Shown here piece by piece: positions 2,548 through 60,183 of a DNA stretch of 64,000 nucleotides (position 1 is its first letter; each line of letters begins with the position of its first letter). The stretch lies in the IMG/VR virus record IMGVR_UViG_3300021960_000018. One strand, 5' to 3'. A program made the position numbers and the translations under genes. The stretch is from a virus. The notes under the pieces were generated by a model, which saw only the letters and a program-made list of their open reading frames with translations, ran no database searches and had not been told where the DNA came from.

Positions 2548-2900
2548 TAATTCAAATAATTACGACATTTTTTCAGTTTTTTCGAAATAAATTCTGGATC
2601 ATTGATCTGTCGGTTTAGTGGGGAAGGGTGAGGAAGCACGAAATGTTCTACATTAAGCTGAGAAAGGAATTTAGAAACCAGTCCACCTAAGGCTATTACT
2701 TTCTCGTGCCCGCGTACGCACGAGAGCACGTACTCGCGGTCGATCGCGCGCTTGTCCCAGTAAGGGTCATGGGATAGATTAGTAAATGCTACAATACCCA
2801 CCCCGAGGTCATCGATCCAGTCTTGTAAACGATACCAAGCACATCCCTTTCGGTACTGTGCCTTGGTAGGATTTAATCCGACAATTAAGGTCATCCCCAA
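2547..2900 (-). CDS. Uracil-DNA glycosylase-like fold protein
   Basis: IVGLNP motif, KVIALG, LPHPSPLN. Confidence 0.7.
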   Translation of the reverse strand: MGMTLIVGLNPTKAQYRKGCAWYRLQDWIDDLGVGIVAFTNLSHDPYWDKRAIDREYVLSCVRGHEKVIALGGLVSKFLSQLNVEHFVLPHPSPLNRQINDPEFISKKLKKCRNYLN

Positions 2901-3169
2901 TCCTTACGATCTTCCTCGTGGTTCCAACCGTATGCATATTGGAAGATTTCATCCGAAGTCATTTCATCCATTTCGATTCGACGGCCAAAGCCGGTGCCTT
3001 CGGGATACCAATGGGGGCTGAACTTTCGACCATAGTAACGATCCGCACTTCCACGATCTTGCGGGGATCCGTGAACTGGAAGTTTATTAGAATCTTTGGG
3101 AATGATCCCTCTACGAATATTTTCCGGATAAACGGTAATAAAACCGTCGTCTTCGATTTCACTGTCCAT
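2891..3169 (-). CDS. Hypothetical phage protein
   Basis: HGSPQDRGSADRYYGR segment; start reassigned to MDSEIE. Confidence 0.7.
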   Translation of the reverse strand: MDSEIEDDGFITVYPENIRRGIIPKDSNKLPVHGSPQDRGSADRYYGRKFSPHWYPEGTGFGRRIEMDEMTSDEIFQYAYGWNHEEDRKDWG

Positions 3170-3170
3170 A

Positions 3171-3575
3171 TTATGCAGCCTCCCATTCTTCAAACTTAAC
3201 AATGCCCATCAACTCTTTGACGAGTTCTTTCCCATAGTCGGTGAACAGAATTCCTTGTTTCCAGACCCAATGCTCAACATCCTGCTGGTGATAGAACTTT
3301 TCACCTTCAGTCATCCAGCGGAGAACATCTTCACGCGCAGGACGGCCATCAGCATACTCGTAGCACTTTTCGATCCAAGCTTCAAAGTTGGCAATAGCTT
3401 CCGCTTTCGCTTTCTCCTCACGCACCATTTCCTGGAGGAAATCTTGCTCCATATTGTCCCAGATATCCTGCTTACGCTCAGGAGTGGCATCGTAGAATTC
3501 ATCATTTCCACCAGGACGGAATCCGTAGGTGTCCTTGTGGAAGTCCGAGAAGAGCTCTTCAGAGTAAGTAAACAT
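3171..3575 (-). CDS. Early hypothetical phage protein
   Basis: SDFHKDTYGFRP N-terminus; SD and early promoter upstream. Confidence 0.8.
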   Translation of the reverse strand: MFTYSEELFSDFHKDTYGFRPGGNDEFYDATPERKQDIWDNMEQDFLQEMVREEKAKAEAIANFEAWIEKCYEYADGRPAREDVLRWMTEGEKFYHQQDVEHWVWKQGILFTDYGKELVKELMGIVKFEEWEAA

Positions 3576-3600
3576 GAGGTATCTCCTTGTTGATACTACT

Positions 3601-3634
3601 AATATAAGCCTTTTCGAATCGTTTGTAAACCCCC
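3601..3634 (-). promoter_or_regulatory. Early promoter TTTACA-N17-TATATT
   Basis: Third copy of the motif. Confidence 0.85.
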
Positions 3635-3648
3635 TTTTTACATTTTTT

Positions 3649-4209
3649 TCACTTTTTTAGTTGTTCGAATCCCCAGTTTTTCTCTCTGCATTGCCAACAC
3701 TCCCCACACTCTTCACCAGATGTTTTTCTGATGCAACTTCTCGTCTGTGATAGATCTATAGATAGTTGGTTAGCAAGATCGATAATGTGGTACTTGTATA
3801 GGTGTAAGAACGGGGTCTGCAATCTGGGAGTAGCAATGTTCCAGGGTCGACCTGGCTTGTCAGATGTGGCAAACTCTGGGAAGTATTCAAGGGGAGGAGT
3901 ATGGTTGATACCATAATATAGATTATCAATATCATAGTTTTTAAGAATATAATCTATAGCCGTGGGCACTCTTGCCCAATGTTCAGTAGTAAGTTCTGCG
4001 ATTTCGATTACGGGTTTGTTGGTAATAGCCTTTACTCTAGCGCTACTATCAAACCCGTCAGCTCTTGCAATATTAAAGATTATGGGATTATCAAGTAAAT
4101 GATACATGACAAAACTATCAATCCCGCCAGACATAATAATACCGGGCTTTTTATCGGTTGGGATATTGACTACCCTTTGATCCCATTCAGGTCCGCATAT
4201 ATATTGCAT
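3649..4209 (-). CDS. QueC-like PP-loop ATPase (short, divergent)
   Basis: SGGIDS PP-loop; SC-x8-CGECWQC Zn motif; start at MQYIC after GGAGG. Confidence 0.75.
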   Translation of the reverse strand: MQYICGPEWDQRVVNIPTDKKPGIIMSGGIDSFVMYHLLDNPIIFNIARADGFDSSARVKAITNKPVIEIAELTTEHWARVPTAIDYILKNYDIDNLYYGINHTPPLEYFPEFATSDKPGRPWNIATPRLQTPFLHLYKYHIIDLANQLSIDLSQTRSCIRKTSGEECGECWQCREKNWGFEQLKK

Positions 4210-4240
4210 AACAATCCTCCAAATCATAAGGTATATATCT

Positions 4241-5017
4241 ATGTATGACACTGTTGTTTCAGGATGTAGTTTTACTGCAGCTAATTTCAAGAGTCACGCA
4301 GCGCCTGATGTTGATACTAGCTGGCCAAAATGGCCTGAGTTATTAGGCAATGAAATGGGTTGGAGTGTATTAAATGTTGCCAAAAGCGGATACTCAAACG
4401 AAAGGATATGCGAAGAGGCCATAGAGGCTATAAAGGAAAATAGTAATATAAAAAGATGTATCATTGCTGCATCTGGATGGACTAGGTTTTCTCTTTTCGG
4501 ATATAATTTTATGTGGGATTTTATAATGCAAAAGGAAACCGGACTAGAGGTAATGAAATTGTGGGGTGATGAAGATCCAGAAACGAATCCTATCTATTTA
4601 AAACAAACTCGAGATTTAAAAGAAATAGTACGATTGGTGGAAGTTAAAGAAGAAAAAGCATATCGCCACAGTCTTAAAAAACAACTATACGCATTGGATT
4701 ATTTAAGATTAGTTTGTAAGCAGCGCAATATAGAATTATATTTCTTCCAGATGTTACCAATAGTTAATCATCTTTTTATTGATAGATATAATATAAAACA
4801 GCAGGTCCTGAATAGTTATGAATATAAAACTATGAAAAGGGAATGTAAATTTATTAAACGATACGATTCATTATATGAAAATAATATTATATTAATGAGT
4901 TTTTCAGATAAGAAATTATCTGATAAAGATTTAAGAGTTTCTGAATACGATCAGCATCCTAATAAATTATGTCATGAACTCATTGCACTATGGTTAAAGG
5001 AAGAAATAAATGGTTAA
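4241..5017 (+). CDS. SGNH/GDSL-like hydrolase or acyltransferase
   Basis: GCSFT block I, N-A-SG-SN block II, DQHPN..H block V. Confidence 0.7.
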   Translation: MYDTVVSGCSFTAANFKSHAAPDVDTSWPKWPELLGNEMGWSVLNVAKSGYSNERICEEAIEAIKENSNIKRCIIAASGWTRFSLFGYNFMWDFIMQKETGLEVMKLWGDEDPETNPIYLKQTRDLKEIVRLVEVKEEKAYRHSLKKQLYALDYLRLVCKQRNIELYFFQMLPIVNHLFIDRYNIKQQVLNSYEYKTMKRECKFIKRYDSLYENNIILMSFSDKKLSDKDLRVSEYDQHPNKLCHELIALWLKEEING

Positions 5018-13273: not shown

Positions 13274-13926
13274 CTGCCTGCTAGTGGGTTATCCAATGCC
13301 TCTTGTAATCTCATTTCAAGATCAGTTCTAAGGGTTCTCATATTAGTATCTATACGCTCCTCTGTATCCCGCATTGTATCACGTACGTCCTTTTCTGATT
13401 CGCGGATAGTCCCTTCGACTTCCCGAATAGAAGCAGTTACATCTTTTTCCTGCTGGTTCATGTCCGCGCGCACGCCCTCGAGAGTCGCTTCAATTGAGAC
13501 CTGTGTTGCTTTAATCCTTGCCTCTGCATCTTCTAAAGATTGACCTACGCGGATTTCTAGTTCTCGCATATCTCTTTCAACTCTATCGGTCGTCTGTTCA
13601 ATGCGTAGAATATCGTCTCTTAGGCCGTTTTTAATATCGCGCGTGTACGCGATCGCTTCTTCTAGTTTAATCTCTATTTCATTATTACGAGCTTCAATAG
13701 CATCAGTATCAATATTGGCAATGATTTCTTTCATCCCCATATAGTCATTATAGACTTGGAATGCACCATAAAGTCCGCCAATAATAGAACTGATAATAGC
13801 AAAGGCTGCACCAATTGTAGTCGGCGTTACAGTAATACCAAATACTTTCATTTTGGTATTTTTAAGATTTTCTATTTCTTCTTCGAACGCTTCTGTTAGT
13901 TCGCCTAAGTCTTTATCTTCTGCCAT
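13270..13926 (-). CDS. Membrane-anchored coiled-coil protein
   Basis: One TM (IGAAFAIISSIIGGLYGAF) followed by a long heptad-rich region. Confidence 0.7.
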   Translation of the reverse strand: MAEDKDLGELTEAFEEEIENLKNTKMKVFGITVTPTTIGAAFAIISSIIGGLYGAFQVYNDYMGMKEIIANIDTDAIEARNNEIEIKLEEAIAYTRDIKNGLRDDILRIEQTTDRVERDMRELEIRVGQSLEDAEARIKATQVSIEATLEGVRADMNQQEKDVTASIREVEGTIRESEKDVRDTMRDTEERIDTNMRTLRTDLEMRLQEALDNPLAGR

Positions 13927-17737: not shown

Positions 17738-17749
17738 AACATACTTATA

Positions 17750-19127: not shown

Positions 19128-19782
19128 TTTGAATAAACTCCTCTATCATTGGGAAGCATCGCGCGATCGCGTACGCGCACTCTCTCGCGAGCTCGATGTG
19201 CTCTTTTTGTGTACCATTTCCAGACCTAAGTTCAATGTAATGTACCCAAGAGCGAAGGGTACCATTAACATAGAGACGGCTAACTGTGTTCCCCTCTGGT
19301 AGCACAGCGCGCGCCTGTTCCTTGGCAATCCCGGCCTGAATTGCCCATTTGTATGCCATTCGTGCTTCATGAATTATCTGTTCCTGTTTAATAATCCAAG
19401 CTTTTTTGATTTGTTCATCATCAGTTTCTATAGAATTCTGACGATTCTTTTCATCTTGCAGTCGTGCTTCTCTGACAACAAATTGTAGATCTTCGGTGGG
19501 GTCTGCATATCGCTGTGAGAATTCTTGGAAAGAAAAAGACCTATGCCGCAAAAACTGTCTAGCAATATCACGAGTGGTTTCAACCTCAAGTGTGGCAGAA
19601 GCCATTTCTAGTGGTGACCAATGTTTATGTTTGATCAGATAACGAATAAGCTTTTCGCCAGTTTCTGTATTTAGCTGATTCGAGGGATTTGATACACGAG
19701 CACAATAGGCAATAAGATCTTTTGCATTATCAATGCCGATCATATTAACCGGTTGGGTATAACCAATTAGTCTAGCCTTCAC
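19120..19782 (-). CDS. thyX: Flavin-dependent thymidylate synthase
   Basis: HWSPLE, RHRSFSFQEFSQRY, ARAVLP, TQKEH. Confidence 0.97.
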   Translation of the reverse strand: MKARLIGYTQPVNMIGIDNAKDLIAYCARVSNPSNQLNTETGEKLIRYLIKHKHWSPLEMASATLEVETTRDIARQFLRHRSFSFQEFSQRYADPTEDLQFVVREARLQDEKNRQNSIETDDEQIKKAWIIKQEQIIHEARMAYKWAIQAGIAKEQARAVLPEGNTVSRLYVNGTLRSWVHYIELRSGNGTQKEHIELARECAYAIARCFPMIEEFIQNG

Positions 19783-24873: not shown

Positions 24874-26161
24874 AAAGTTCACTCCAGATTTTTTCATTGG
24901 TTTGGCGTTGTTGCATAGGATCTGTGCGGATTGCATCAGTCTTAAGAGGATGTTTGTCCCGCGAAAGAATCTTTTGTGGGACAAGATCTTTGAAAGCTTC
25001 TTTAAGAACTTTCTTTTCGCCATTACGTTGCTCGTACGGCGTGCGTAGCGCGTGCGTGACGACCTTAGGCGACAGGAATGGAGCACGAAGTTCAATAGTG
25101 CTATGCATCATCGTACGGTCCAATTTAGGTAGATGATAATAAGGCAATTCACACCAAATATCCGAAGCTTGGCTATCATACTCTTTTGCACGACGATATC
25201 CACCGAATAGTTCGTCAGCACCATCCCCGGTTAGGACTGCATGGAAACCGAGGTCATGTAGTTTTCCTGCCATAGCAATTTGTGGTTTGGTAGAACCAAG
25301 ATCAACTGGAGACTGATGTATAGCAACGCTATCCATGTCACTAACGCCGTGAAGTTGTACTTCGACCATATCTTTTGCAACCAATTTAGCATAGTCTTCT
25401 TCTCCATTATCGACGTGAATGGCTGTAACATCACGACCGAGGATATCAGTAATAATCTTATAAATGATGGTAGAATCTAGGCCGCCAGATAGTAGAATAG
25501 ACAGTTCACGCTGACCGCCAAGGCGTCGTTCGACTGATTCGATTAGGTCAGTGCGCAGGTCAGTGCACGAGGTCATTTTCCAATTCCAGTACTTGTGCAC
25601 TTGCCCTTTATGAATAAGGCATCCTGGAGGAAGTTGTTTAATTTCATTCCAGGGAGTACCACCAGTTGGATCATAGCCCCATTTCATAGTATTTGAATGG
25701 AACAGTTCGTTACGGGTGACAGGACCAAATTCTTTTAGTACATCTGGTTCAGAAGCCATAGCATCTACGTCAGTACGGTAATACAAAGGCTTAATACTAA
25801 GATGATCGGTAACACCAAACAGTGCGCCGTCCATAACAGTTACGTATGTCCAGAAGCCATCGAATCGATTAAACTCACGAATACCTTTGATCCAAAAGGT
25901 TTGCCATGCACAATCGATATCATTATCGAAGCCAAAATCTTCGTAGTTAAAGATTTCACCGACAAATAGTGAGTTACTACCAGGACGAGGCTGAATAGCG
26001 ACTTCAGGATCTAGATTAACAAATGGTAGACTTACGTGGCCGAGCTGAATAGGACCATTACGTTCATAGCCTTTATAACCCGGTAGTCCTCGATAAGCAA
26101 TTTTATCCAGTAATGATTCTACATCAACATCTGTATTGATTGCTGCAATGAAACCACACAT
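24866..26161 (-). CDS. Asparagine synthetase B-like glutamine amidotransferase
   Basis: N-terminal MCG (Ntn Cys), GEIFNY, SGGLDS, GDGADELFGGY, ELRAPFL. Confidence 0.92.
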   Translation of the reverse strand: MCGFIAAINTDVDVESLLDKIAYRGLPGYKGYERNGPIQLGHVSLPFVNLDPEVAIQPRPGSNSLFVGEIFNYEDFGFDNDIDCAWQTFWIKGIREFNRFDGFWTYVTVMDGALFGVTDHLSIKPLYYRTDVDAMASEPDVLKEFGPVTRNELFHSNTMKWGYDPTGGTPWNEIKQLPPGCLIHKGQVHKYWNWKMTSCTDLRTDLIESVERRLGGQRELSILLSGGLDSTIIYKIITDILGRDVTAIHVDNGEEDYAKLVAKDMVEVQLHGVSDMDSVAIHQSPVDLGSTKPQIAMAGKLHDLGFHAVLTGDGADELFGGYRRAKEYDSQASDIWCELPYYHLPKLDRTMMHSTIELRAPFLSPKVVTHALRTPYEQRNGEKKVLKEAFKDLVPQKILSRDKHPLKTDAIRTDPMQQRQTNEKIWSELYG

Positions 26162-26940
26162 TACACTGCTGCTCCTTCGAAGTTATCCCAATTGTATTCT
26201 TGAATGCCGGCAAGCTGTCTTAGTGCATATCGATCATTCTCGAAACAATGTAAACTAGTTGAGCTAAAATGTAAATACCCTGGTTTGGCATTTATACCAC
26301 TTTTTTCAATCATCCACATAGTTAGACGATTAGCAAAGTATAGGTCGTTGTGTAGGTGACGCACCACGTCGCAAGAGCGCATGTGATATGAACAGTGTAG
26401 TTCACCGCCGCGTTCCATAAAGTGCCAACCGAATGAACAGGGTACACGCTCACCCTGATTAGCAGCTACGATATCCTCGGGAAACCACATAGGAACATAA
26501 CACTGACGGGTAGTACTGTCCTTTTTAAGCAATTCAACGGCATCGCCAAGGTTGCCAGTCTTGAAGCGAATACCGTCCATGCTTGGTGCCCACATACGTT
26601 CGGGATACGAATGAGAGAACGCTTGTTGGCCCTCAGACATATATTTGTCTGTATCCTTGAGCCACATAGTGTGGGATGGGGGAGGATTAAGTGGTACACC
26701 GCCGGTACGTTCGTCAAAGTGTACGTCGGCCCAGGGTTGTGTAGCGCTTAGACCGTCTGATGCTTCTTTGGCATCAGTATACATTGGTGCTACTAGGTCA
26801 GCGTGAAGAATCTCCAGGAAGGTAGGCGGAGAGGTCGTACCCTGCCAGCTTCCCGTCTGAATCGTATACCCCTGTTTGTACAACAAAGTCCTTAAGTTTT
26901 TCAAGCCCTCGCTCAGATTTCTCCCGCTTACTCTGTTCAC
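26161..26940 (-). CDS. Thymidylate synthase homolog, dCMP hydroxymethylase-like
   Basis: VPC catalytic Cys; MRSCDVVRHLHND; SLH. Confidence 0.8.
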   Translation of the reverse strand: MNRVSGRNLSEGLKNLRTLLYKQGYTIQTGSWQGTTSPPTFLEILHADLVAPMYTDAKEASDGLSATQPWADVHFDERTGGVPLNPPPSHTMWLKDTDKYMSEGQQAFSHSYPERMWAPSMDGIRFKTGNLGDAVELLKKDSTTRQCYVPMWFPEDIVAANQGERVPCSFGWHFMERGGELHCSYHMRSCDVVRHLHNDLYFANRLTMWMIEKSGINAKPGYLHFSSTSLHCFENDRYALRQLAGIQEYNWDNFEGAAV

Positions 26941-33046: not shown

Positions 33047-35512
33047 TTATCCAAAGAAATCCTCTAATGTTGCTTTGGGTTCACTTTTCCAACCAATAGA
33101 ATCTAAGATAGATTGGACCGGATCCAAGAATGCTTTGTCGAACTGTAGATCGTAGTCTATATATTTATCCAGACCGAGTTCGGGAGGTAGGTAATCCATA
33201 AACGAGATAACATTCTCTTTTAGAGGATTCGGTAGACGTAAGTATGTATACTTCATCTTATTTCCGTTTTGAATAAGTTCATATTTCTTATCTAGTCGTT
33301 TTTCCGCCAATGCTTTGTTATAGAGGATTGACCCGCGAACGTGAATTGGACAACCTTTTTTATATCCATCAGATGTTACCCATTTATCGATGTCGGTAAC
33401 ACCACGTGGTGCAGCAACCTGATCTGGGCGTAGCTTACGGAACTTTTCCTTACATTTACGAATATATGCCTGGGTTTCGGCTTCGGTGCCTGACATAAGA
33501 ACAGGGAACAGTTCGCGCATCCATCCGCGCGCGACCTCGGGCGTGGAAGACTTGATAGCTTCAATACCCATGATCTTAAGCTTAGGCTTTTCGTATTGAA
33601 CACCTTCAGAGTTGTGTACGTTAAGGATATATCGCTTCTTAGCTTGCCAGATGCCACGGTCAGCAATAACCTCACGTTCCATAACCATACGGTTTTCGAA
33701 GCAATTCATATCATCAAACAGATCTTTCATAGACCGTTCGAACATGGGGTTAAAATGATTCTCGCATGCTTCATCTAGGAACTTAACCGGATCAACCGGG
33801 TTAAACTTTTTAACGAATGGTGCAAAGTTAACATAAACCGAATCAGTATCAATAGCAATAACATAATCGTCGTCAGTGCCTAAGATCTTGTTCAGTTCGG
33901 AGTTAATAGCTCGTTCACACCACTTAATAACATGCTGACCTGTAAGGGTAATGCCCTCGGCAACACGAAGGTCAAAGTATCGGTACCACTTATTACCAAT
34001 AGCACCAAACAAAGAGTTCATAAGGATCTTAATTGCCATTTGTTTGTTTTGGGCCGTGGCAATCTCACGTTCCAGTTCTTTACTTGTACCGTCTTTCTGT
34101 TGCTTACGCATTGCTGCGAGCATTTCTTTCTTGACCTCTTTACGTTCAGCATAATAAGCTTTAACAATTCGAGGAAACGTACCTTCGAACGAATTATCAT
34201 ACTTAGAATCGTTAGCCGCACGAGATACGTTATCTGGCACCCGGGTAGTTTGTATAAGAGTCTCGGGCGACATGTTCCATTGAGCAATGATGTTAGGGTA
34301 TAGAGAGTTAAGGTCAAAGCTAACTACCCATTCATACATGGCAGGCTTAACCTCTTTCACGTACCCGCCCGCGAATCCAACCGACATATTAGCCAGTCGT
34401 TCACGATCTTTCATGGGGGGAACAGCAATATTCTTAAGGGTTAGGTCCCGATAGACAATAGAATCCCAGATGGAAGTAGTACCGAATACGTCAGTAAAGT
34501 TTACACCAGCCTTATAGGCCAGTGTGCATGCTAGACCGATAAGATCCATCTTCTCGTCCATACGTTCTACTAGTTCTACGTCCTTAATGTTATAGTCGAT
34601 ATAGAGCTGATGATTCTCATTATAAAGATTGCGGAGGCTACCATATTCATCGTAGGATAGTTTATTCTCACCAAGAACCACATGGGCAATGTGGTCCAGT
34701 TTATATGATTCTTGTGGACCGTAGCTATAACCAAACTTTTGGAATAGGTCATAGTAGTCCATTTGGCTGATCCCAGTCAACTGATAAGAGTCCATGTTCT
34801 TGTTCTTGAACTGAACCTGCTTTTGACGTACAGATCCCCACGGGGAAAGAGACTCTGCTGCTTTCTCAGAGCCAAGTCGGGTGATACGATTAACGATGTA
34901 CGGAATATCGAAGAATCGAATATTCCATCCGGTAATAATATCGGGATAATCTTTCTTCCACCAGACTAGGAACTTATAGAGCAACTCTACTTCGTCTTTG
35001 CAGTAGTGATACTGGATTAAAAGATGTTTATGCGGGGATTTTTCTACATCATACTCTTTCGTGCCCCAAACGTGGTACACGGAGGAACGAGACGACTTGC
35101 AGGTAATAGCCGTAATAGGGTGTCGGGCTTCTTCTGGGGTAGGAAAGCCATCATCTGAGTAGACCTCGATATCAATGTTAACTACATTGATGTGGCCACG
35201 ATTAAAGGGGATTTCACCGGGAAACTTTTCTTGAATAAACTGCATGACAGGACGATCACAGCCATAGTACTTAAAGCCTTCCAGTCCTTCTTTGTCTTTA
35301 ATCCAATCCCGCATAGCGCTAGGAGACGGCAACGTAATAGGTTCTACGTTATAGCCTTCAAGGGTGCGCCAGCCGGTTTCATTTTTAGATGGAAGAAAGA
35401 GTGTAGGTTCGAATTCATATCGATGTGACACTGGAGTGCCGTTGTCAGTATAGCCACGGTAAACTACACGATTACCGAGAACGTCGACTGATGTATAAAA
35501 TGACAAATGCAA
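33047..35512 (-). CDS. 43: Family B DNA polymerase (gp43)
   Basis: DIE exonuclease motif, DLNSLYP, KILMNSLFG, DTDS, KKRY; TTG start (35506 or 35512). Confidence 0.97.
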   Translation of the reverse strand: MHLSFYTSVDVLGNRVVYRGYTDNGTPVSHRYEFEPTLFLPSKNETGWRTLEGYNVEPITLPSPSAMRDWIKDKEGLEGFKYYGCDRPVMQFIQEKFPGEIPFNRGHINVVNIDIEVYSDDGFPTPEEARHPITAITCKSSRSSVYHVWGTKEYDVEKSPHKHLLIQYHYCKDEVELLYKFLVWWKKDYPDIITGWNIRFFDIPYIVNRITRLGSEKAAESLSPWGSVRQKQVQFKNKNMDSYQLTGISQMDYYDLFQKFGYSYGPQESYKLDHIAHVVLGENKLSYDEYGSLRNLYNENHQLYIDYNIKDVELVERMDEKMDLIGLACTLAYKAGVNFTDVFGTTSIWDSIVYRDLTLKNIAVPPMKDRERLANMSVGFAGGYVKEVKPAMYEWVVSFDLNSLYPNIIAQWNMSPETLIQTTRVPDNVSRAANDSKYDNSFEGTFPRIVKAYYAERKEVKKEMLAAMRKQQKDGTSKELEREIATAQNKQMAIKILMNSLFGAIGNKWYRYFDLRVAEGITLTGQHVIKWCERAINSELNKILGTDDDYVIAIDTDSVYVNFAPFVKKFNPVDPVKFLDEACENHFNPMFERSMKDLFDDMNCFENRMVMEREVIADRGIWQAKKRYILNVHNSEGVQYEKPKLKIMGIEAIKSSTPEVARGWMRELFPVLMSGTEAETQAYIRKCKEKFRKLRPDQVAAPRGVTDIDKWVTSDGYKKGCPIHVRGSILYNKALAEKRLDKKYELIQNGNKMKYTYLRLPNPLKENVISFMDYLPPELGLDKYIDYDLQFDKAFLDPVQSILDSIGWKSEPKATLEDFFG

Positions 35513-38511: not shown

Positions 38512-39449
38512 TATGTAAACTCCACGTTGGACATAATCTCTGTCATGCAAGCTACGATGTTTAGTTCGTGGTCTGCGACAAAGGCGTTTTTATATTGGTA
38601 ATCTGCAAGTATGAGTACAAGTGCAGGAATAGATTGCGGCTTGACCTTATCGTTCATACGGTCATAGATCGCACGGAAGATAGCAGAAGCATCTGTGTCG
38701 ATGTTATCTACCACCCACTTACGCATATTCTTAAAGTCTTTATCCTTTAGGTAAGTGAACAAAGATTCGTATGAAGTATCGCTCACGCTCGCGAGCACGC
38801 CCGAATCAATCTTACCCGAAATACTATAGCGCTGACATTCGTTAATAACACGACGCCAATCAGGGGCATGCTTGATAATTAGATCTGCAACTGCTTTGGT
38901 ATCATACTGAATCTTTTCAGATTCGAGGATGTGTTTCATACGCTCGAAGAATACAGCCGCAAGACCAGCCATCTCCTTACGGGTAGTATTAAATTCGTAT
39001 ACCGAACACCGTGAGTGCAGGGGTTCGATAATACGGTTCTTAAAGTTAGCTGTAAGGATAAACCGACAGTTATTAGCAAACTCTTCGATAAATCCACGAA
39101 GAGCTGGTTGAGTAGACTGTGGGTTAAGATAATCAGCCTCATCAAGGATAACTACTTTGTAGCCGCCTTGTAGTGAAATAGTAGAGGCAAACTGACGGAT
39201 CTTACCACGAAGGGTTTCGATATTACCTTCTTCGGATCCGTTAACATATAGGTAATCAAGACCAAGCTCGTTACACAATGCACGAGCTACAGTGGTCTTA
39301 CCGAGACCCGCCGTACCTGTAAACAGCATATTAGGGAGTTGGCCAGTTGAAGCCAACTCCACAAAAGTCTTTTTCAGACTAGGTGGGAGAACAGTATCTT
39401 CGATCTTACGAGGACGATACTTTTCTACCCACAAAAAGTCATTCGACAT
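38511..39449 (-). CDS. 44: Clamp loader large subunit (gp44)
   Basis: WVEKYRP, GLGKTT, DEAD, SRC. Confidence 0.96.
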   Translation of the reverse strand: MSNDFLWVEKYRPRKIEDTVLPPSLKKTFVELASTGQLPNMLFTGTAGLGKTTVARALCNELGLDYLYVNGSEEGNIETLRGKIRQFASTISLQGGYKVVILDEADYLNPQSTQPALRGFIEEFANNCRFILTANFKNRIIEPLHSRCSVYEFNTTRKEMAGLAAVFFERMKHILESEKIQYDTKAVADLIIKHAPDWRRVINECQRYSISGKIDSGVLASVSDTSYESLFTYLKDKDFKNMRKWVVDNIDTDASAIFRAIYDRMNDKVKPQSIPALVLILADYQYKNAFVADHELNIVACMTEIMSNVEFT

Positions 39450-40415: not shown

Positions 40416-42134
40416 TTAAGCTGCCAATTTAGAGAAATTTTTCTCTTTTACAAATTCAAGCTTACGTTGGAACTTATTGTCTAGTATTTCACCCTTATGG
40501 CTGATTACAAAGGTATTGGTCTCATCATCAAGGGTGTATAGAATCTTCATTAGGTTATCCACCCCATCATGATCCAATGAAGAGTCAAAGGTCTCATCAA
40601 GGATTAATAGGTTGGTAGAAATACTGTTTTTCATCTTGGCAATCATTCTCCAAGTAAACAGCAATGATAGGTCGATCCTCTGCTTTTCACCTTCAGAAAA
40701 CGAATCATACGTAAACGTGTCACGGTGGCGGGATCGAATAGTCTCGCTAAATTCTTCGTTGAGGTTAAAGTGTACAAAGAAGTCCAATGTTTGTAGGTAC
40801 TGATTAACCAGTTTATTGATCACAGGAAGATATTGCTTAATGATCTTGGTCTTAATACCGGTATCCTTTAGCATCTCTGCAATAACAGAATTATAACTAT
40901 AGGTCTCATTCTGCTTAAATTTTTCTTCGCGTAGGTTATCTCGCTCGGTCTTCATCGTTTCCAGATCCGACTTAGCAGTACCAAGATCGCCCTCGCGCGC
41001 GGTCAGGCGCTCGATATCTTTATTTAATGCATCAATAGTCTTTTGTAGTCTACCGATCTCTTGATTGTTAGCATTGATCTTAGACTGTGTATTACGAATC
41101 TCTTCAGCTTTAAGTGTAAACTCGTCTATAGTTTTCGTAATTTTTGCTGCTTCTTCGTCTGCTTTTTCAAGGGCCGATTTGAGCGTCGATGCGCTGCTTC
41201 TAGCTTCCGCAAGCTTTGTCTCAACGAGGGACTCGGTAATTTCTTGCTTACAAGTCGGGCATGAGGTGTTCGACTCGTAGAACTTTGCATCCTTGACAAG
41301 GGCTTCCATTCGTAGATTAAAAGTGGACCGATATTGTAAGAGGGCTTGCTTTTGGTCGTGACCTTTTTTAAGCGCTTCATTAACGGTTTCCTGATGTTGT
41401 AAAATGTAATCAGAGTGCGTCGAGTTTTCTGCTTGGAGCCGCTTAATCTCGTCCCGAGTCTGTTGGATAGTAGATTGTTTTTCATTAATCTCTTCCTCGT
41501 TCATGGCATTAATGTCACGAATATACTTGTTCTGAGTATCTATACGATTCTGGTTTAGATCGAGCTGATATGTTAAATCCTTTAGAGATTCTTTAATCAA
41601 CGCCTGCTTTTCTTTTATCAATACATTCATTTTAGAGAATACATTGATATCTAAAAGATCCTCGATAACATCTCTACGATGTTGTGCGGAGAGTTGCATA
41701 AAGGGGATAAACGAAGAGCTACCAAGGACTACGATCTGATGGAATGACTTATGTGTCATTTTTAGGATGTTTTGTTCTAGTACCTTTTGATATTCGCGCG
41801 AATGAGCTTCTTGGTTGACCAGATCCGATCCTTTCCAGATCTCAAACACTTGCGGCTTTAGTCCACGAACAATCTTAAAGGTGGAAGATCCTACTGTGAA
41901 AACTACTTCAACCTTACAGTCTTTGTTGTTAATTGTATTAACTAACTGAGGTTTGTTGATGTTACGATGGGGTTTACCGAACAAGGCAAAAGACAATGCA
42001 TCTAGCATTGTTGATTTACCAGCACCATTCTGACCAACAATAAGCGTGGACTTAGTGGCCGTTAGATCCATCTCAGTCCAGTTATTGCCAGTGCTTAGGA
42101 AATTCTTCCATCGCAAAGTCTTAAATTTTATCAT
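40416..42134 (-). CDS. 46: Rad50-like recombination ATPase (gp46)
   Basis: GQNGAGKS, CPTC hook, FSEGE, LDE. Confidence 0.96.
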   Translation of the reverse strand: MIKFKTLRWKNFLSTGNNWTEMDLTATKSTLIVGQNGAGKSTMLDALSFALFGKPHRNINKPQLVNTINNKDCKVEVVFTVGSSTFKIVRGLKPQVFEIWKGSDLVNQEAHSREYQKVLEQNILKMTHKSFHQIVVLGSSSFIPFMQLSAQHRRDVIEDLLDINVFSKMNVLIKEKQALIKESLKDLTYQLDLNQNRIDTQNKYIRDINAMNEEEINEKQSTIQQTRDEIKRLQAENSTHSDYILQHQETVNEALKKGHDQKQALLQYRSTFNLRMEALVKDAKFYESNTSCPTCKQEITESLVETKLAEARSSASTLKSALEKADEEAAKITKTIDEFTLKAEEIRNTQSKINANNQEIGRLQKTIDALNKDIERLTAREGDLGTAKSDLETMKTERDNLREEKFKQNETYSYNSVIAEMLKDTGIKTKIIKQYLPVINKLVNQYLQTLDFFVHFNLNEEFSETIRSRHRDTFTYDSFSEGEKQRIDLSLLFTWRMIAKMKNSISTNLLILDETFDSSLDHDGVDNLMKILYTLDDETNTFVISHKGEILDNKFQRKLEFVKEKNFSKLAA

Positions 42135-44858: not shown

Positions 44859-46355
44859 TTATTCCCCTAGGTTTATTTTATATATGGTATATCTAAACTC
44901 CTGATCCTCATACATTTTTAATCTTTCTGCCCCATGCAAGAAAGCAAAGTTTTTCATTTTTCCTCTGGATATATCGTCGACCAGATCGTACAATCTTGTG
45001 TTAACTCCGGAATCAGACTGTCGAAGACCTCTTCCAATAGACTGCAATACCCTAATTTGTGACTTACTTGGGCTTGCAAATATAATATTATGGAGATTGC
45101 GAATGTTAATACCAGTAGAGAAGGTGCCAAATGACGCAACAATGATAGAATCCTTTTGCTTTTCGACTATTCCGCGGATCGCCTCACGATCTTCAGTATC
45201 AATATCACCACTTACAAAATAAACCTTTCGGTCTTCAGCTGCATTATCTTTTATCATATCAAACAGCGGTCGACCATGTTTATCAACGAATTGGAATAGT
45301 ACGAGGGTGTTTCCCTTTTGATCCAATGCCAAATTTCGAATGAACCGGTTTCTTGCTTCGTTCCTAACTATATAATCTATTTCATCTTGGTATGTCCTTT
45401 TACCCCACGTCGCGCGCACGGGCTCGGGATGATTAAGGACTAACATAGAAATGTCTAGATCTGCTAGGGTGTTATCATCCTGTAGCTTTTTAGTAGTTGT
45501 TACATCAAACACAGGACCGAATAATCCCTCTAGAACCAGTTTATGTGTCTGTGTACCATCTAGCGTTCCGGTAGTACCATATCGATAGGCAGCATATCTG
45601 CACTTATTCATAATAGAGGTCAGGGACTTTGATTTAAACCCGTGACACTCATCTCCAAATACTGCACCGAATTGTTCGAACCATTTGCCAGGTAACTTGT
45701 AGATAGACTGCCAAGTAGAAATAATAACCTTCTTACGTGTATCTTTATCTTTACCTGAATAGATTCGATGTGCATTCGTTTCTACATCATAACCATAATC
45801 TTTAAAATCATCATACATCTGTTCCACTAGAGATGTGGTAGGAACAATGACCAATACTTTTTCTTCACTAAGATGCTCGGTGAAATATCTCATCATGGTA
45901 TAGATGATTAAAGACTTACCCGATCCAGTAGGTGATAAAAGGATCGCTCGCTTATTCGTAAGGCCCCTAAAAACAGCGCTATACTGATAGTCTCTAATTT
46001 CTATGGGGTTACCCTTAGACCTAAGTTCTAGATTACGAATATACTCAGAAAGATTCTTAGGATCTATAGTATTTTTATCAGTAGGATATCCAGCCGTACC
46101 TTCTTCTAGATCAATTTCATAACCACGATCTTTAGAAAATTTAACTAGGTAATTATATAACCCAACGGGTAGCTCGTAAGTGTTACGGTTAAAAAGTCTA
46201 ACCTTACCGTCCCATACCTTATTCTTGTACGCGGGCATAAATTTATAGCCAGGAACAAAGAACGAAAAGAATTCGTTAAGTTCCATGGCAATACCACTAT
46301 TACAACTTAGCTGTAAGTTTACGTGGCTATTCTTCTGTACAAGAATTTTTTCCAT
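44859..46355 (-). CDS. uvsW: UvsW SF2 helicase
   Basis: RDYQ, SPTGSGKS, DECH, QSIGRGLR. Confidence 0.96.
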   Translation of the reverse strand: MEKILVQKNSHVNLQLSCNSGIAMELNEFFSFFVPGYKFMPAYKNKVWDGKVRLFNRNTYELPVGLYNYLVKFSKDRGYEIDLEEGTAGYPTDKNTIDPKNLSEYIRNLELRSKGNPIEIRDYQYSAVFRGLTNKRAILLSPTGSGKSLIIYTMMRYFTEHLSEEKVLVIVPTTSLVEQMYDDFKDYGYDVETNAHRIYSGKDKDTRKKVIISTWQSIYKLPGKWFEQFGAVFGDECHGFKSKSLTSIMNKCRYAAYRYGTTGTLDGTQTHKLVLEGLFGPVFDVTTTKKLQDDNTLADLDISMLVLNHPEPVRATWGKRTYQDEIDYIVRNEARNRFIRNLALDQKGNTLVLFQFVDKHGRPLFDMIKDNAAEDRKVYFVSGDIDTEDREAIRGIVEKQKDSIIVASFGTFSTGINIRNLHNIIFASPSKSQIRVLQSIGRGLRQSDSGVNTRLYDLVDDISRGKMKNFAFLHGAERLKMYEDQEFRYTIYKINLGE

Positions 46356-48033: not shown

Positions 48034-48076
48034 CAAAAGTATAAATAGCAGTGTTTACTAACAGAGGAACATTACT

Positions 48077-48943: not shown

Positions 48944-48945
48944 AT

Positions 48946-49015
48946 AAAAAGGGCGGCTTTCGCCGCCCAGTTTATAGGAGATAGATTGGGAGGGGTTAAT
49001 TCCCCTCCCTTTTTT
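48946..49015. terminator. Pair of convergent intrinsic terminators
   Basis: Minus: GGGCGGC-GAAA-GCCGCCC-T5 (gp23). Plus: GGGAGGGG-loop-CCCCTCCC-T6 (lysin). Confidence 0.85.
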
Positions 49016-49019
49016 ATTC

Positions 49020-50357
49020 TTACTGAAGAATACCGTCGACGCGGAAGATTCTGTAGTAAGTGTTGCTACGAGCAGCGGCAAGACCGCTAGCAGGAGTAGC
49101 ACCAACGAATGGGTTCGAGACCATGCCGTAGCGGGTCTTGAAGCCAATTTTTGGCTGGAAGGTTTCTTCACCAACGGCACGAACCATGGTCAATGGAACG
49201 TATGGGCAGTAGAAGACGCCGGCGTCGTAAGCCGAAGTACCTTTGTAACCAACGTTGATGTAGTCGTTAGTAGCATATGGGTCGATATAGACCTTTGTGC
49301 GACCGTTTAGTGTACCAGCGTAGGTGTTGCCTGTGTCATCAACAGCAAGTGAAGTGTTGAGGGCAGGGGCGTAGTCTAGCATGCCGGTAGCCGAAAGAGC
49401 CGAAGCCACGTCCGAAGAAGTGATGATGAAGTTACCACGACCTCTACGAGTGTCTTTAGCAATCTGGTTGGCTTCACGCTCGAGCTGAACGATAAGACCT
49501 TTAAACTTCTCAACTGACCAACGGCCATCGGCGTCTGTCTCTAGGTCGAAGATACCGTTAACAGCAGTGTTAGCTGTCGAAGCACCAAGCTGAGCTTGCG
49601 AGTTAACAGTACGGATAACTTCGCGGTTGATTTCCGCAAGGATTTCCGTTGTTAGGATGTTAGCAAGCTCTGTCTCGGCGTCAAGACCATGAATAGCACG
49701 AAGGTCCTGAGCAAGTTCCATCGAGTATTCAGCTTTGAGCGCACGTGACTTGGCAGTAACGGTGGCTTTTTCGATGCTGAAACCCATTTCGCCGAACGAC
49801 TGACCGCCAGCACCGCCGAGGCCTTCAGCAGCAGCGGTCGAAAGGGTAGCAATGTTGGCCATTGGATCGGAGATCGAGTCAGAGATCGTGCCGTCGCCGT
49901 CGCCGTCAAGAGCAGTACCAAGACCCGATGGATCCGAACCCTGAGCAGTAACGCCTGAGTCGCCGCTGAAACCAGCAGCAGCTTCCGAGAAGAGAGCTTC
50001 CGCACCCGAAGAGACGCCAGCGCGTGTCGACTTGTAGCGTGACTTAAGAGCGAAGATAAGGCCGGTAGGACCAGTCATTGGCTGAACGCCAGCAATGTCG
50101 TAGGCGATCATGTTTGGCATCGCGCGACGAACGAGCGAGATAAGAACTGGGTTCCAGTTAGCAATGCCCGAACCAGTGTTCATGGTTGGGGTTTCCGCTA
50201 GGAAGTTCATAGCATTGCCTTCTTCACGGAAAGCAATTTCTTGGTTTTCAAGAAGCTGGGCTGTGACAGCTTTCTTATAACGGTCGGAGATCGAACCGGC
50301 GGTCTCTTCGTTGAGAACCGGAGCCCATTTCTCCATTAGTTTATCGTATGACTGCAT
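49020..50357 (-). CDS. 23: Major capsid protein (gp23)
   Basis: GVQPMTGPTGLIFA, KSRALKAEYS.ELAQDL, FYCPYVPL, GFKTRYG. Confidence 0.98.
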   Translation of the reverse strand: MQSYDKLMEKWAPVLNEETAGSISDRYKKAVTAQLLENQEIAFREEGNAMNFLAETPTMNTGSGIANWNPVLISLVRRAMPNMIAYDIAGVQPMTGPTGLIFALKSRYKSTRAGVSSGAEALFSEAAAGFSGDSGVTAQGSDPSGLGTALDGDGDGTISDSISDPMANIATLSTAAAEGLGGAGGQSFGEMGFSIEKATVTAKSRALKAEYSMELAQDLRAIHGLDAETELANILTTEILAEINREVIRTVNSQAQLGASTANTAVNGIFDLETDADGRWSVEKFKGLIVQLEREANQIAKDTRRGRGNFIITSSDVASALSATGMLDYAPALNTSLAVDDTGNTYAGTLNGRTKVYIDPYATNDYINVGYKGTSAYDAGVFYCPYVPLTMVRAVGEETFQPKIGFKTRYGMVSNPFVGATPASGLAAARSNTYYRIFRVDGILQ

Positions 50358-52373: not shown

Positions 52374-52411
52374 TTTATACTCCTTGTATATTATTTATAC
52401 ATTTTAAAATT

Positions 52412-54659: not shown

Positions 54660-54674
54660 TTTCGGTATCTCCTA

Positions 54675-56498: not shown

Positions 56499-56566
56499 TG
56501 GATGTTCTCCTTAAAAATTATACGTATAATCATCATAAGAATGTTCATTACTATTATTTATAATAT

Positions 56567-58165
56567 TTAAAAATTTCGATGTGTTGGATCAATTGCCCAC
56601 TCCCAATCATCGTTTTTACGAGCTTGTTCGATTGCCGCAATTTCATCTTCGTTGTCATTAATGAATCCGAATGGTAATACATCATCCTCGATGGCTTTCA
56701 TATTTTGTTCAAATAGCATTTGTTTAATATTAATATCAGTAATATCCGCAAAGTAACTAGTGCTAATAAAATAACCAAATAAAACTAGATTCATTACTAG
56801 GTCGTCGTGGTTACCATCACTAGCTTCATAGGATTGACCTTTGGCTACAAACGTACTAATTTCTAGAATTGTATTTTGATCTACGATTTCTAATTTTTTA
56901 TTCTCGAGTACATCTTTAAATCCCGAACATCCGATACGTTTTACTTTTCTATTCATATTAATGCCGAGTGAATTCGCTTTAATCGCAGACTCAACAAACA
57001 TATTTTCATATTCTAGGTCCATATAAAGACCATTACATACCAATTGTCCAGCATCATTATTCTCAATAATTACTAAAGCTTCGTTGTAAGAAGTTGCGTA
57101 CTTATAAATAATATTGGGGAAGAGGATAGGAGAGATAGTATTATTTCGATAAACCGCGACCTGTTTCCAAGGTCTACATGTTACATCGATCACATTAAAA
57201 GTAGAATAATCCAGACCTCTTCCCTTCGCAACATCCACTAACATAATATACTCGTGGTTTTTAATTGCCTCTTCATAAATGAAAACATCATCTGCGGTTC
57301 TCATTTTATAAGGCATAGATCTAAGCGACATAAGAGTATCCGCAGAGATCAACGTATCCCCAGTACCAAAGAATGTATTACCAAATTCCTGGTCGAACTG
57401 AAGCTGTGAAGTATTTGCAATAGTCTTCCGCTTCCATTCTTCATCTCTTCCTGGTACCATCCACCAATCAACTCGGAATGGTTTATATTCGCTTACACCT
57501 TGTACTGCGCTTTCCCATATTTTATGGAACATATTACCAATACCATTTGCGGTAGAGGTAATAATAATGCGAGTGTCTTTACCAGATGAAATAACAGGAT
57601 ATGTTGAAGTATAGAATTCAGTAGCACGTTCTACGAATGCAAATTCGTCTAGATAAAGTAGGTTAACGGACATACCGCGAATCGAGCTACCAGAAGTCGC
57701 TCGTGCTATGATACGAGAATTATTACTAAATTCTAATGAACCCTTATTTAAAACCTTTGTACCAGGCTGTAAAAAGAATGGGAGATTTTCTAGCATAAGG
57801 GTCACGCGGGCGAGCATCTCCCGCGCGGTATCACCTTTGTTGGCTAGAATAGCAACTGTCTTATCTGGATGAAAGATAGCATACCAGAGAAGATAAGCTA
57901 CAGATGAAATAGACTTACCAGACTGACGACATGCTAGAACAACGGAAAATCGATTCGAATTAAAATGGTCAAACATTTCCGTTTGATATGGATAAAGATC
58001 AAACGGCACAAGACCTTTATCCAGAGAAATTACTTTACAGTATGCTCTGGCGAAATAACTGGCATCCTGAGAACATTTAACATATTCTTGGATTTCTCTT
58101 TGCGTGAAATTATGGATAACGCCATCTGCTTTAATGCTGGCATTACCATTATATGAATCATTCAT
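56567..58165 (-). CDS. 17: Terminase large subunit (gp17)
   Basis: RQSGKS, LDEFAF, STANG, DVAKG, HDDLVM. Confidence 0.97.
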   Translation of the reverse strand: MNDSYNGNASIKADGVIHNFTQREIQEYVKCSQDASYFARAYCKVISLDKGLVPFDLYPYQTEMFDHFNSNRFSVVLACRQSGKSISSVAYLLWYAIFHPDKTVAILANKGDTAREMLARVTLMLENLPFFLQPGTKVLNKGSLEFSNNSRIIARATSGSSIRGMSVNLLYLDEFAFVERATEFYTSTYPVISSGKDTRIIITSTANGIGNMFHKIWESAVQGVSEYKPFRVDWWMVPGRDEEWKRKTIANTSQLQFDQEFGNTFFGTGDTLISADTLMSLRSMPYKMRTADDVFIYEEAIKNHEYIMLVDVAKGRGLDYSTFNVIDVTCRPWKQVAVYRNNTISPILFPNIIYKYATSYNEALVIIENNDAGQLVCNGLYMDLEYENMFVESAIKANSLGINMNRKVKRIGCSGFKDVLENKKLEIVDQNTILEISTFVAKGQSYEASDGNHDDLVMNLVLFGYFISTSYFADITDINIKQMLFEQNMKAIEDDVLPFGFINDNEDEIAAIEQARKNDDWEWAIDPTHRNF

Positions 58166-58520
58166 CTTTCTTATAGTCGTTTATATCAATTACATTATCA
58201 TTTTGTTGTCTACTACTTAATAACATTTTTTGAAGTTCTGCCGTAGAACCCACAAATAAATTATTTGTAGTTTGTGGTAATGCAGGAATATCTTTTTTCT
58301 GCATATCCTTTTTCTTTTTATGTACGTCCATAAGTCTATCGTTCACATCACTGATGTGTTTAATTAGTCCACCTAAAACTTCAAAAGATCTTGGGTGCTG
58401 GGTTTGATCTGCTACGTCTAGCATACCTTGCAATGCTTCTTGACCCGTAGCGATTAGATCTAAGTAAACTTTGCGGGAATATTCAAAATCATCTTGTACT
58501 TGTTTATCAGAATCTTCCAT
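58158..58520 (-). CDS. 16: Terminase small subunit (gp16)
   Basis: HPRSFEV, NNLFVGSTAEL. Confidence 0.92.
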   Translation of the reverse strand: MEDSDKQVQDDFEYSRKVYLDLIATGQEALQGMLDVADQTQHPRSFEVLGGLIKHISDVNDRLMDVHKKKKDMQKKDIPALPQTTNNLFVGSTAELQKMLLSSRQQNDNVIDINDYKKDE

Positions 58521-58528
58521 ATCATTTC

Positions 58529-59290
58529 CTATGGCACATCATTAATTGTAGTTATAGTAAATCCATAATCCGAATCTGGATCAACATCTGATGGATTCGG
58601 TACTATAGTATACTTACTTACTCTACCATCAGAATCGCCCATTAAATAAAAATTAGTTTGGATTTCGCGAATAATTTTACTATCACCGATAGGACCATAA
58701 AACATAGTTTTCATCTCAAAATCTAATGTATATGTTATAGTTCTACGGCTTTCTACAGCACCTTCGAAGTCATCAGAGAAGGTAGATCCTACAATAGTAA
58801 TTGGAACATCTTCTTTAATATTAGGATAACTTGCAAAAGGTTTAAGCGATAGAGAATATTGAGGACTAAAATATGGAATGATTTGTTCCACAATTTGTAA
58901 AGCATCATCTTGCGTATCAGCATAAATGTTTAAGCTAAAAAATACGTTATAAGGAACGCCAGCATAAAATACTTTTTTATTCGTATCTGTATCATATGCA
59001 GAAAACTTATTGGTCTTTGCAACCATACGAGTCGAATCATATTGAAGAGATGTAATCTCAAATGACATTCTGGGAAGTTTAAGAGCAATTGATTGATCAG
59101 TGTCTAGATTTTGTTGAGCGCGAATTCTTTCTAGATATTTTTCTCTTGGTGCATATGCAAGAGGAACTTTTACTTGACTGATTACATTACCAGAAGAATT
59201 CTGACGGATCACGTATAGATTATTAAATAGCGACCCAAAGGCTGCTACTGATTTACGTAAACGCTGATGATAAAAGTGTGTCCCGAACAT
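58529..59290 (-). CDS. 15: Tail sheath stabilizer (gp15)
   Basis: FYH, FGSLFN, LPRMSFE, QIVEQIIPYF. Confidence 0.94.
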   Translation of the reverse strand: MFGTHFYHQRLRKSVAAFGSLFNNLYVIRQNSSGNVISQVKVPLAYAPREKYLERIRAQQNLDTDQSIALKLPRMSFEITSLQYDSTRMVAKTNKFSAYDTDTNKKVFYAGVPYNVFFSLNIYADTQDDALQIVEQIIPYFSPQYSLSLKPFASYPNIKEDVPITIVGSTFSDDFEGAVESRRTITYTLDFEMKTMFYGPIGDSKIIREIQTNFYLMGDSDGRVSKYTIVPNPSDVDPDSDYGFTITTINDVP

Positions 59291-60183
59291 TATTGTGGAT
59301 CTCCAAATGGATTGCTTTCTGAGAAGTCTAGGAAGCCAACCAATGTATCAAAGTACTCGTTTTGCTCGGTGACTGTTGATGAAGCTTTAATCAATCCTTC
59401 TTCCTCTACTAGTGTAACAGTACCAGTCGCCGAAGAACTGACGCCTGTAATAGTACGACCAGTAGCAAATTCAGAATATCCACCGCTATCTGCTCCAACG
59501 TGAATAAGTCCAAGTTTATTATCAGAATCACTCCATCTTGAAACCTCTCCCGACATTGTAATACCGGAAGAAAGAACCATATTAGCAATTTCGCCTAGTT
59601 CAAATGTACCAACCTGACCGCTGTCATTTAATGTAAGCATGTACGTGTACGCGTACTCGCGCTCGATTGCATCAATAGCTTCAACGCCAGTATCAAAGTC
59701 TTGATCATTGTATTGGAAGAGTTCACAACGTAATTGATAAGTTGGAAGATTTCTTAATTGGTAAAATGGCTGTTCATGCTCGACGTGCATGATCTGGAAG
59801 ATCTTTCTCGAGAAAGGAATATAAAGTAAATCTCCTTCAGCTGGGCGAGGAGCATTAATATCATTATCATAACGTTGAATAGTTTGTTGCCAACGTTTTC
59901 TAGCAACAATAAACGTAGCAGCATCCCGGATTTCAATACCGAATCGAGTGAATAGATCACCTTCTCCGTCGAATCCAGCAACGTTATCTACATACATTTC
60001 AATCTTATAAGAAGAATTAAATCTAGAAGGAACGTCGTGTCCTAGGATCTTATCTTCATTTACAATATCGCGAGGAAGATAGTAGACGTCTTGTCCATAC
60101 ATTTTTAGACTCTCTATGACTATATCTTCATAGAGATTCTGTTCGGATCTAACATCGTATTTAAAGTATGGATTAGTTGCCAT
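59290..60183 (-). CDS. 14: Neck protein (gp14)
   Basis: EQNLYED, YYLPR, P.EGDL, PFYQL, FSESNPFG. Confidence 0.93.
   Translation of the reverse strand: MATNPYFKYDVRSEQNLYEDIVIESLKMYGQDVYYLPRDIVNEDKILGHDVPSRFNSSYKIEMYVDNVAGFDGEGDLFTRFGIEIRDAATFIVARKRWQQTIQRYDNDINAPRPAEGDLLYIPFSRKIFQIMHVEHEQPFYQLRNLPTYQLRCELFQYNDQDFDTGVEAIDAIEREYAYTYMLTLNDSGQVGTFELGEIANMVLSSGITMSGEVSRWSDSDNKLGLIHVGADSGGYSEFATGRTITGVSSSATGTVTLVEEEGLIKASSTVTEQNEYFDTLVGFLDFSESNPFGDPQ

Follow-up and report, generated by a model that had tools for sequence, protein, structure and literature searches.

Dispersed DNA-level signals that share sequence with genes are known from several systems. Bacterial recognition words such as Chi, matS, SlmA and Noc sites impose a DNA constraint on synonymous positions of unrelated genes throughout the chromosome. 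GC-biased gene conversion at recombination hot spots is known from eukaryotes and has been proposed for bacteria, and phage T5 carries site-specific single-strand interruptions at GCGC-containing sites, which are strand-specific, have a consensus and are of unknown function. Here we describe CpG islands lying inside the genes of a virus, IMG/VR record IMGVR_UViG_3300021960_000018, of which a stretch of 64,000 nucleotides (hereafter the window) was analysed one island at a time. The window corresponds to positions 65545-129544, minus strand, of a T4-like phage genome that is complete at 157,283 bp and has direct terminal repeats; the base composition of this genome is AT-rich (GC 38.8%; GC at third codon positions, GC3, 31%).

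The islands share features with each of these systems and match none of them. Like the bacterial words they sit in silent positions of unrelated genes across the chromosome; unlike them they have no defined word, being 20-60 nt of saturated recoding in which nothing recurs beyond CGCG-type composition, and an original prediction made for the window was right that they are not a repeat family. As in GC-biased gene conversion, GC is enriched locally at silent and replacement sites alike, whereas the islands are on a scale of tens of bases, have sharp edges, prefer CpG and show no link to mosaic boundaries. The T5 interruptions are likewise few, dispersed, GC-rich sites on an AT-rich phage chromosome, but they share a consensus and are strand-specific, while the islands share no word. 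Two further comparisons are with Z-DNA-prone alternating CG tracts, whose score by ZSeeker criteria (PMC12123511), in a simplified implementation, reaches at least 50 in 14 of 24 islands, and with the cut-resistant polymorphisms of T-even MobE/nrdB (PMC2790892), which are also clustered, mostly silent differences in a conserved gene near a nuclease gene. Unlike established Z-DNA tracts, the islands owe their score to codon composition alone, in a genome that encodes no Z-alpha protein; unlike MobE/nrdB, there are about 25 sites for two endonuclease-like open reading frames (ORFs), all changes go toward CpG, and many of the genes are not typical targets. Local pressures on codon usage more generally have been reviewed (PMC8410138).

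The islands far exceed chance expectation. As a null model, 207 ORFs were called over the whole genome and synonymous codons were permuted within each gene in 200 runs; the expected counts below come from these shuffles. Clusters with at least 6 CpG in 20 nt number 14 against 0.76 expected (z = 15), those with at least 8 CpG in 30 nt number 8 against 0.12, and stretches of at least 75% GC in 30 nt number 17 against 5.2. A scan by log-likelihood ratio (LLR), which compares island with background synonymous codon use, found 31 segments at LLR ≥10 (6.4 expected) and 10 at LLR ≥14 (1.0 expected), and a scan for runs of G/C-ending codons gave 28 segments at score 10 against 5.9. From these we estimate about 25 true islands in the genome, about 12 of them in the window, each of 7-21 codons and each a sharp peak within a gene of otherwise 10-40% GC3. 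The overall ratio of observed to expected CpG in the genome is only 0.95, so the signal is one of clustering and not of abundance. GC3 autocorrelation within genes is near 0, which indicates a small set of discrete segments and rules out regional GC heterogeneity. Assembly artefacts were also ruled out, as islands are present in independent assemblies: around the patch at 2705, an independent 2024 assembly has 0 differences over 2001-4427.

The original prediction had listed twelve CG-rich alternating purine-pyrimidine patches in the window, and had named codon-shuffled genomes as the control on which they would stand or fall. All twelve quoted strings are present where they were placed, and the shuffled controls give far fewer such patches. 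Eight of the twelve (2711, 13465, 19160, 25039, 38780, 40994, 57803 and 59637) have LLR 10.6-23.1, and three more (13638, 33514 and 45406) have LLR 8.8-9.2. Their description as alternating needs to be narrowed: plain purine-pyrimidine runs of at least 10 are not in excess (89 against 88), and it is the GC-rich runs that are, at a length of at least 10 (16 against 4.0) and of at least 12 (5 against 0.68). The islands and related features of the window are as follows.

2703..2762, minus strand: island of 20 codons in the UDG-like gene (2547-2894), LLR 23.1, the strongest in the window
13456..13488, minus strand: island of 11 codons in a coiled-coil protein gene (13270-13926), LLR 11.9
13639..13656, minus strand: short island of 6 codons in the same coiled-coil protein gene (13270-13926), LLR 9.1
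19138..19203, minus strand: island of 22 codons at the 3' end of thyX (19120-19782), LLR 19.5, containing a 10-nt CG-rich palindrome
19307..19314, no strand assigned: 8-nt GC run in thyX
25028..25078, minus strand: island of 17 codons in an AsnB-like amidotransferase gene (24866-26161, assigned by Pfam), LLR 15.1
26338..26385, minus strand: island of 16 codons in a second thymidylate-synthase-fold gene (26161-26940; PF00303, E = 1e-7), LLR 11.3
33506..33556, minus strand: weaker island of 17 codons in the DNA polymerase gene gp43 (33047-35512), LLR 8.8
38781..38804, minus strand: island of 8 codons in the clamp loader gene gp44 (38511-39449), LLR 11.1
40989..41015, minus strand: island of 9 codons in gp46 (40416-42134, assigned by Pfam), LLR 11.8
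45408..45428, minus strand: short, borderline island of 7 codons in uvsW (44859-46355, assigned by Pfam), LLR 9.2
57800..57829, minus strand: island of 10 codons in the terminase gene gp17 (56567-58165), LLR 10.6
59641..59667, minus strand: island of 9 codons in the neck protein gene gp14 (59290-60183), LLR 12.4, with a perfect purine-pyrimidine run of 20 nt on the plus strand

Islands also occur in nrdA and in a tail-fibre gene. The island at 26338..26385 was absent from the original list, and the 8-mer at 19307, which was on it, is present and not significant alone. The names thyX, gp43, gp44, gp46, uvsW, gp17 and gp14 had been given correctly (Pfam places thyX, gp44, gp46, uvsW, gp17 and gp14 in the same way), while three gene assignments change: the patch at 2711 lies in the UDG-like gene and not in thyX, those at 13465 and 13638 in the coiled-coil protein gene, and that at 25039 in the AsnB-like gene.

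Comparison with relatives reveals what was changed at the islands. Megablast found no close relative among deposited phage records, and identity of the gp43 polymerase to those of named phages does not exceed 49%. Metagenomes of estuaries, the sea and fresh water, from no fewer than 11 studies, contain the phage; a metagenome scan for relatives gave a best identity of at most 75%, and thyX relatives at 93-99% exist. We applied the same test to the complete relative G001 (146.5 kb) and to the partial genomes G002 and G003, which have little or no excess, and to 37 further T4-like contigs (562 kb), where the counts were 23 (34.6 expected), 1 (1.8) and 3 (3.0). As these 562 kb of related contigs hold no excess, this lineage is an outlier. 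Codon alignment with orthologues shows mostly the same residues at the islands, spelled with ordinary A/T-ending codons in the relatives: over 269 aligned island columns, GC3 is 0.87 here and 0.45 in G001. In thyX, G001 has the same residues with A/T-ending codons, and the island columns hold 10 CpG here against 0-4 (mean 1.6) in 79 homologues. Ordinary codons occupy the place of island 13456..13488 in G001 and G003, the AsnB-like island is not common to either of these genomes, and relatives use TAT, GAT and ACC codons at the place of the gp14 island; at the gp17 island the same place is partly GC-rich in G001 too.

The recoding is not confined to silent positions. Where residues differ from G001, GC at codon positions 1 and 2 is 0.54 here against 0.43 in G001 inside islands, and 0.41 against 0.43 outside them. 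Arg is enriched and Lys depleted inside islands, and in gp44 the residue changes relative to G001 go to GC (for example I to V, V to A and N to S). Since residue replacements also move toward GC, the pressure is on the DNA and not only on codon choice, which bears out the original proposal of a DNA-level signal. Island residues are at the same time somewhat more conserved than the rest (0.75 versus 0.67).

Within this GC-ward shift there is a further choice. Islands favor GCG, ACG, TCG, CGC and GTG over GCC, ACC, TCC, CGG and GTC, and the ratio of NCG to NCC is 69:39 in islands against 1326:1667 in the background. When islands were defined by GC3 alone and their real codon choices compared with random G/C-ending synonyms, CpG (z = +6.5) and GpC (z = +4.5 to +5.2) were enriched, CC/GG was depleted (z = -5.5), and purine-pyrimidine steps were enriched (z about +5). 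In contexts that leave alternation unchanged, CpG is still chosen 13:2 in islands against 358:446 (P = 0.001), and contexts informative for alternation alone are not significant. CpG is thus specifically preferred, and GC-biased conversion without a preference among G/C alternatives does not describe the islands.

Where an island is shared with relatives, its spelling is conserved. Three are kept in this way (UDG-like, nrdA and gp43), and the weaker islands are not common to relatives. In the UDG-like island, eight IMG/VR homologues have 1-2 synonymous differences per 13-18 same-residue codons, compared with 31-41 per 80-82 elsewhere, and two GTA codons inside the island are also kept; A/T-ending GTA, CTA and GAA codons within islands are conserved as well. 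The nrdA island is kept in relatives at 94% identity, with 3 of 16 synonymous changes against 204 of 503 elsewhere, and is absent at 70%. Against relatives at 87% amino-acid identity, the gp43 island has 4 of 17 codons changed, while the rest of the gene has 410 of 799 changed (306 synonymous among 695 same-residue codons). Pooled over the three islands, about 8 of 47 synonymous codons have changed (about 17%) versus about 551 of 1278 elsewhere (about 43%).

The arrangement of the islands along the genome is suggestive as well, with the strongest more evenly spaced than chance. When sites are defined by at least 7 CpG in 30 nt, the gaps between the 14 of them vary less than under random placement (coefficient of variation 0.44 versus 0.90, P = 0.002), and the smallest is 5.5 kb; ranking by LLR and taking the top 7-20 islands gives coefficients of 0.36-0.62 (P = 0.001-0.03). 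The strongest islands recur roughly every 6-14 kb.

Several other sources of such a pattern were considered and rejected. A shared motif or Chi-like word was ruled out, as no k-mer is common to all islands and mild enrichment is confined to CGTACG-type words: the best 10-mer is found with at most 2 mismatches in 20 of 32 islands (null mean 16.4) and with at most 1 mismatch in 9 (6.5). A genome-wide palindrome or restriction-site effect was ruled out because the overall counts of CGCG, GCGC and GTAC lie close to or under expectation. RNA hairpins are not the general cause, the mean fold z being about 0 over 12 islands. Individual hairpins occur at 13639..13656 (a small one, z = -2.4) and in the gp17 island (z = -2.0); the summed folding energy of the islands is not below a composition-matched null (P = 0.26), covariation in the UDG-like island amounts to one compensatory pair among 38, and an Rfam search of the genome returned tmRNA only. 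Mosaic boundaries relative to G001 were excluded by a left-right identity jump of 0.083 at islands and 0.081 at random positions, and no G-then-C pattern runs across island halves.

Taken together, the islands exceed chance, are missing from most relatives and are conserved where they are shared; therefore something acts on the DNA itself. We tentatively favor, as a possibility that falls short of even chances, that the islands are a selected physical punctuation of the DNA. They would be DNA-level elements laid over coding sequence: at each, the lineage would have pushed 7-21 consecutive codons, together with some residues, to the spelling richest in CG/GC steps that the protein tolerates, and purifying selection at the nucleotide level would then keep that spelling. 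What the islands would have in common is physical character in place of a word, namely a very stable duplex, a Z-prone score and dense cytosines, possibly C5-modified, on both strands, and it is through this character that they would work. They may serve as strand-opening barriers, torsion sinks or landing sites for a protein with loose specificity for CG tracts, put wherever the local protein sequence makes them cheap. It is our inference that a physical property is under selection, and so is any specific role. A more specific version, which we consider unlikely, is a selected physical code in which CG/GC-step tracts in permissive codons, about every 10 kb, serve as punctuation, either responsive to supercoiling (Z-prone, perhaps more so with C5-modified cytosine) or a barrier to melting, and organize replication, recombination or packaging, the same solution recurring in several AT-rich marine T4-like lineages.

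The original prediction had pointed to Z-DNA, a mechanism that the scores do not establish. With a simplified ZSeeker-style implementation (parameters from PMC12123511), 34 segments score at least 50 versus 15.8 +/- 3.4 in shuffles, an excess that island codon composition fully accounts for (P = 0.16); at fixed codon composition, the fraction that alternates is 0.553 versus 0.548. Other points weigh against selected physical punctuation in general. Alternation is inseparable from the CpG preference, and many islands are short or interrupted and so poor substrates for a B-Z transition. The genome was searched for a candidate reader protein, and neither a Z-alpha domain nor a cytosine-5 or N4/N6 methyltransferase is present. 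The even spacing was looked at under several thresholds and disappears when weaker candidates are included. A local GC pressure that persists would likewise leave shared islands with the same synonymous codons, since a two-fold codon can end in G or C in only one way. Several of the islands are located in typical target genes of homing nucleases, relatives manage without islands, and we found no description of such a system for phages in the literature.

Some neighboring genes bear on the possible state of the DNA and on the host. At 23609-28065 (minus strand) the second thymidylate-synthase-fold gene (26161-26940) stands together with AsnB-like amidotransferase, UDP-glucose dehydrogenase-like, phosphomannomutase-like and cytidylyltransferase-like genes, a cluster that may be a pyrimidine hypermodification pathway. 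Because thyX is accompanied by a second thymidylate-synthase-fold gene beside sugar-nucleotide enzymes, a C5-modified pyrimidine is possible. The phage also carries seven tRNA genes (genome 522-2928: Arg-UCU, Leu-UAA, Ser-UGA, Pro-UGG, Thr-UGU, Leu-UAG and Met), all of which read A-ending or Met codons (AGA, UUA, UCA, CCA, ACA and CUA, plus Met). A permuted tmRNA of alphaproteobacterial type lies at 17418-17790 on the minus strand (RF01849, 125 bits) with the tag ANDNFAPLALAA; a search of bacterial genomes for this tag found no identical one, and in population variants about 50-80 nt inside the tmRNA are swapped, with joints at 17516-17568 and 17595-17674. The tRNAs for A-ending codons and the alphaproteobacterial tmRNA together suggest a host richer in GC, in which island codons would be common.

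Two homing-endonuclease-like ORFs are present. One, at 23166-23624 on the plus strand (phrog_314, E = 4e-7), lies on the opposite strand between uvsX and the UDP-glucose dehydrogenase-like gene, and relatives lack it; the other, at genome 142275-142697, is just downstream of nrdA (phrog_7363, E = 4e-21). Both are small (140-152 aa) with weak GIY-YIG matches. A UDG-superfamily-like gene at about 2515-2894 (minus strand) constitutes a mobile module, with about 88% identity to G003 and homology that stops abruptly on both sides, and is found in eight IMG/VR contigs. Its protein has 115 aa and the motifs GLNPT and HPSPLN; the Pfam match (E = 3e-4) is below the curated cut-off, and searches against PDB, NCBIfam and PHROG gave no match.

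There are explanations other than selected punctuation. The islands could be target sites for homing endonucleases of competing phages, respelled to escape cutting or shaped by repeated break repair, which we judge rather unlikely. An island length of 20-63 nt suits a nuclease recognition site, many of the genes are classic homing targets (nrdA, thyX, the thymidylate-synthase-fold gene, gp43, gp17, uvsW and gp44), and the greater conservation of island residues fits as well. Each endonuclease-like ORF is 1.4-1.8 kb from one strong island (1.4 kb between the ORF at 23166-23624 and the AsnB-like island), and the genome that carries T4 MobE escapes its nicking because of nucleotide polymorphisms at the site (PMC2790892). 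Two such ORFs are nonetheless few for about 25 islands, about 22 of which have none nearby; no HNH nuclease was found in the phage genome, and homing-nuclease genes are few in relatives. Escape from cutting also needs no uniform shift to CpG, islands occur in the tail-fibre, coiled-coil and gp14 genes as well, and the 37 related contigs are without islands even though T4-like phages commonly carry homing nucleases. A decidedly unlikely alternative is that the islands are non-adaptive by-products of fixed recombination or repair hot spots with G:C-favoring mismatch correction, perhaps through the phage's own UDG-superfamily glycosylase acting on T:G or hmU (5-hydroxymethyluracil):G mispairs. 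GC-ward changes at all three codon positions, the lack of a common motif and the limitation of the trait to this lineage agree with it, as does the presence of the UDG-like gene here and in the G003 group and its absence from G001 and G002. Such repair would be blind to the choice of NCG over NCC (odds ratio about 2-8), which leaves GC content unaffected, and it sits poorly with the sharp edges of the islands, the conserved A/T-ending codons inside them, the lack of a mosaic-boundary link or G-then-C pattern, and a UDG assignment that falls below the Pfam cut-off and has no PDB or NCBIfam counterpart.

Translation offers another source of clustered codons. Island codons such as GCG, ACG and GTG are among the rarest in the genome, and some islands are conserved in homologues with slightly more conserved residues, as would be expected of rare-codon clusters that slow ribosomes for co-translational folding. 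This account seems very improbable to us: the residues themselves move to GC (K to R, I to V), the rarest Arg and Gly codons (CGG, AGG and GGG) are passed over for CGC and GGC, the 37 relatives have the same proteins without islands, and in the GC-richer host suggested above island codons would be common. Even spacing along the genome is predicted by none of homing, biased repair or ribosome slowing. Finally, island codon use resembles that of GC-rich bacteria, and GC-rich nrdA homologues in IMG/VR spell the conserved N-terminal motif almost identically, which would agree with the import of short segments of GC-rich homologues, whether from the host or from GC-rich phages. We give such import hardly any credence, and it is already disfavored: no donor was found among 79 thyX, 78 nrdA and 64 pyruvyl-transferase-like homologues, ancestral A/T-ending codons common to relatives (AGA in thyX) persist inside islands, the residues at islands agree with those of the phage's own clade, structural genes known only from phages have islands too, and there are no longer GC-rich tracts, in keeping with the flat GC3 autocorrelation.

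Other compositional and population features of the genome were noted in passing. Against the synonymous shuffles of the whole genome, GATC is over-represented (891 versus 743, z = 8.8), AATT is under-represented (1235 versus 1486, z = -10) and the sense-strand 6-mer AAAAGA is enriched (246 versus 168). The putative major capsid gene (49020-50357, minus strand) is locally GC-rich, with 48.5% GC over 48001-50000; this comes from C/T-ending codons (GGT, GCT, ACT and TAC), a codon set unlike that of the islands. Among population variants, a tract diverged by 11% at 13522-13765 lies within a contig otherwise 1.4% diverged, and island 13639..13656 within it has one change (13639 G>A, in one run) among the changes listed. 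Some population contigs join 19290/19301 to 20316, so that about 1 kb from mid-thyX is skipped or replaced.

It is usual to regard silent positions in phage genes as near-neutral or as shaped by translation. Here about 25 short stretches have been rewritten to an extreme composition, with residues changed along with codons, and some have been kept through about 40% silent divergence. Whatever their cause, such islands can mislead analyses of codon usage, horizontal transfer and selection. If nuclease escape or biased repair were the explanation, the islands would mark conflict or repair hot spots that are otherwise invisible, and could be used to map these in uncultured phages. If they are a physical chromosome signal, they would constitute a new layer of phage genome organization.

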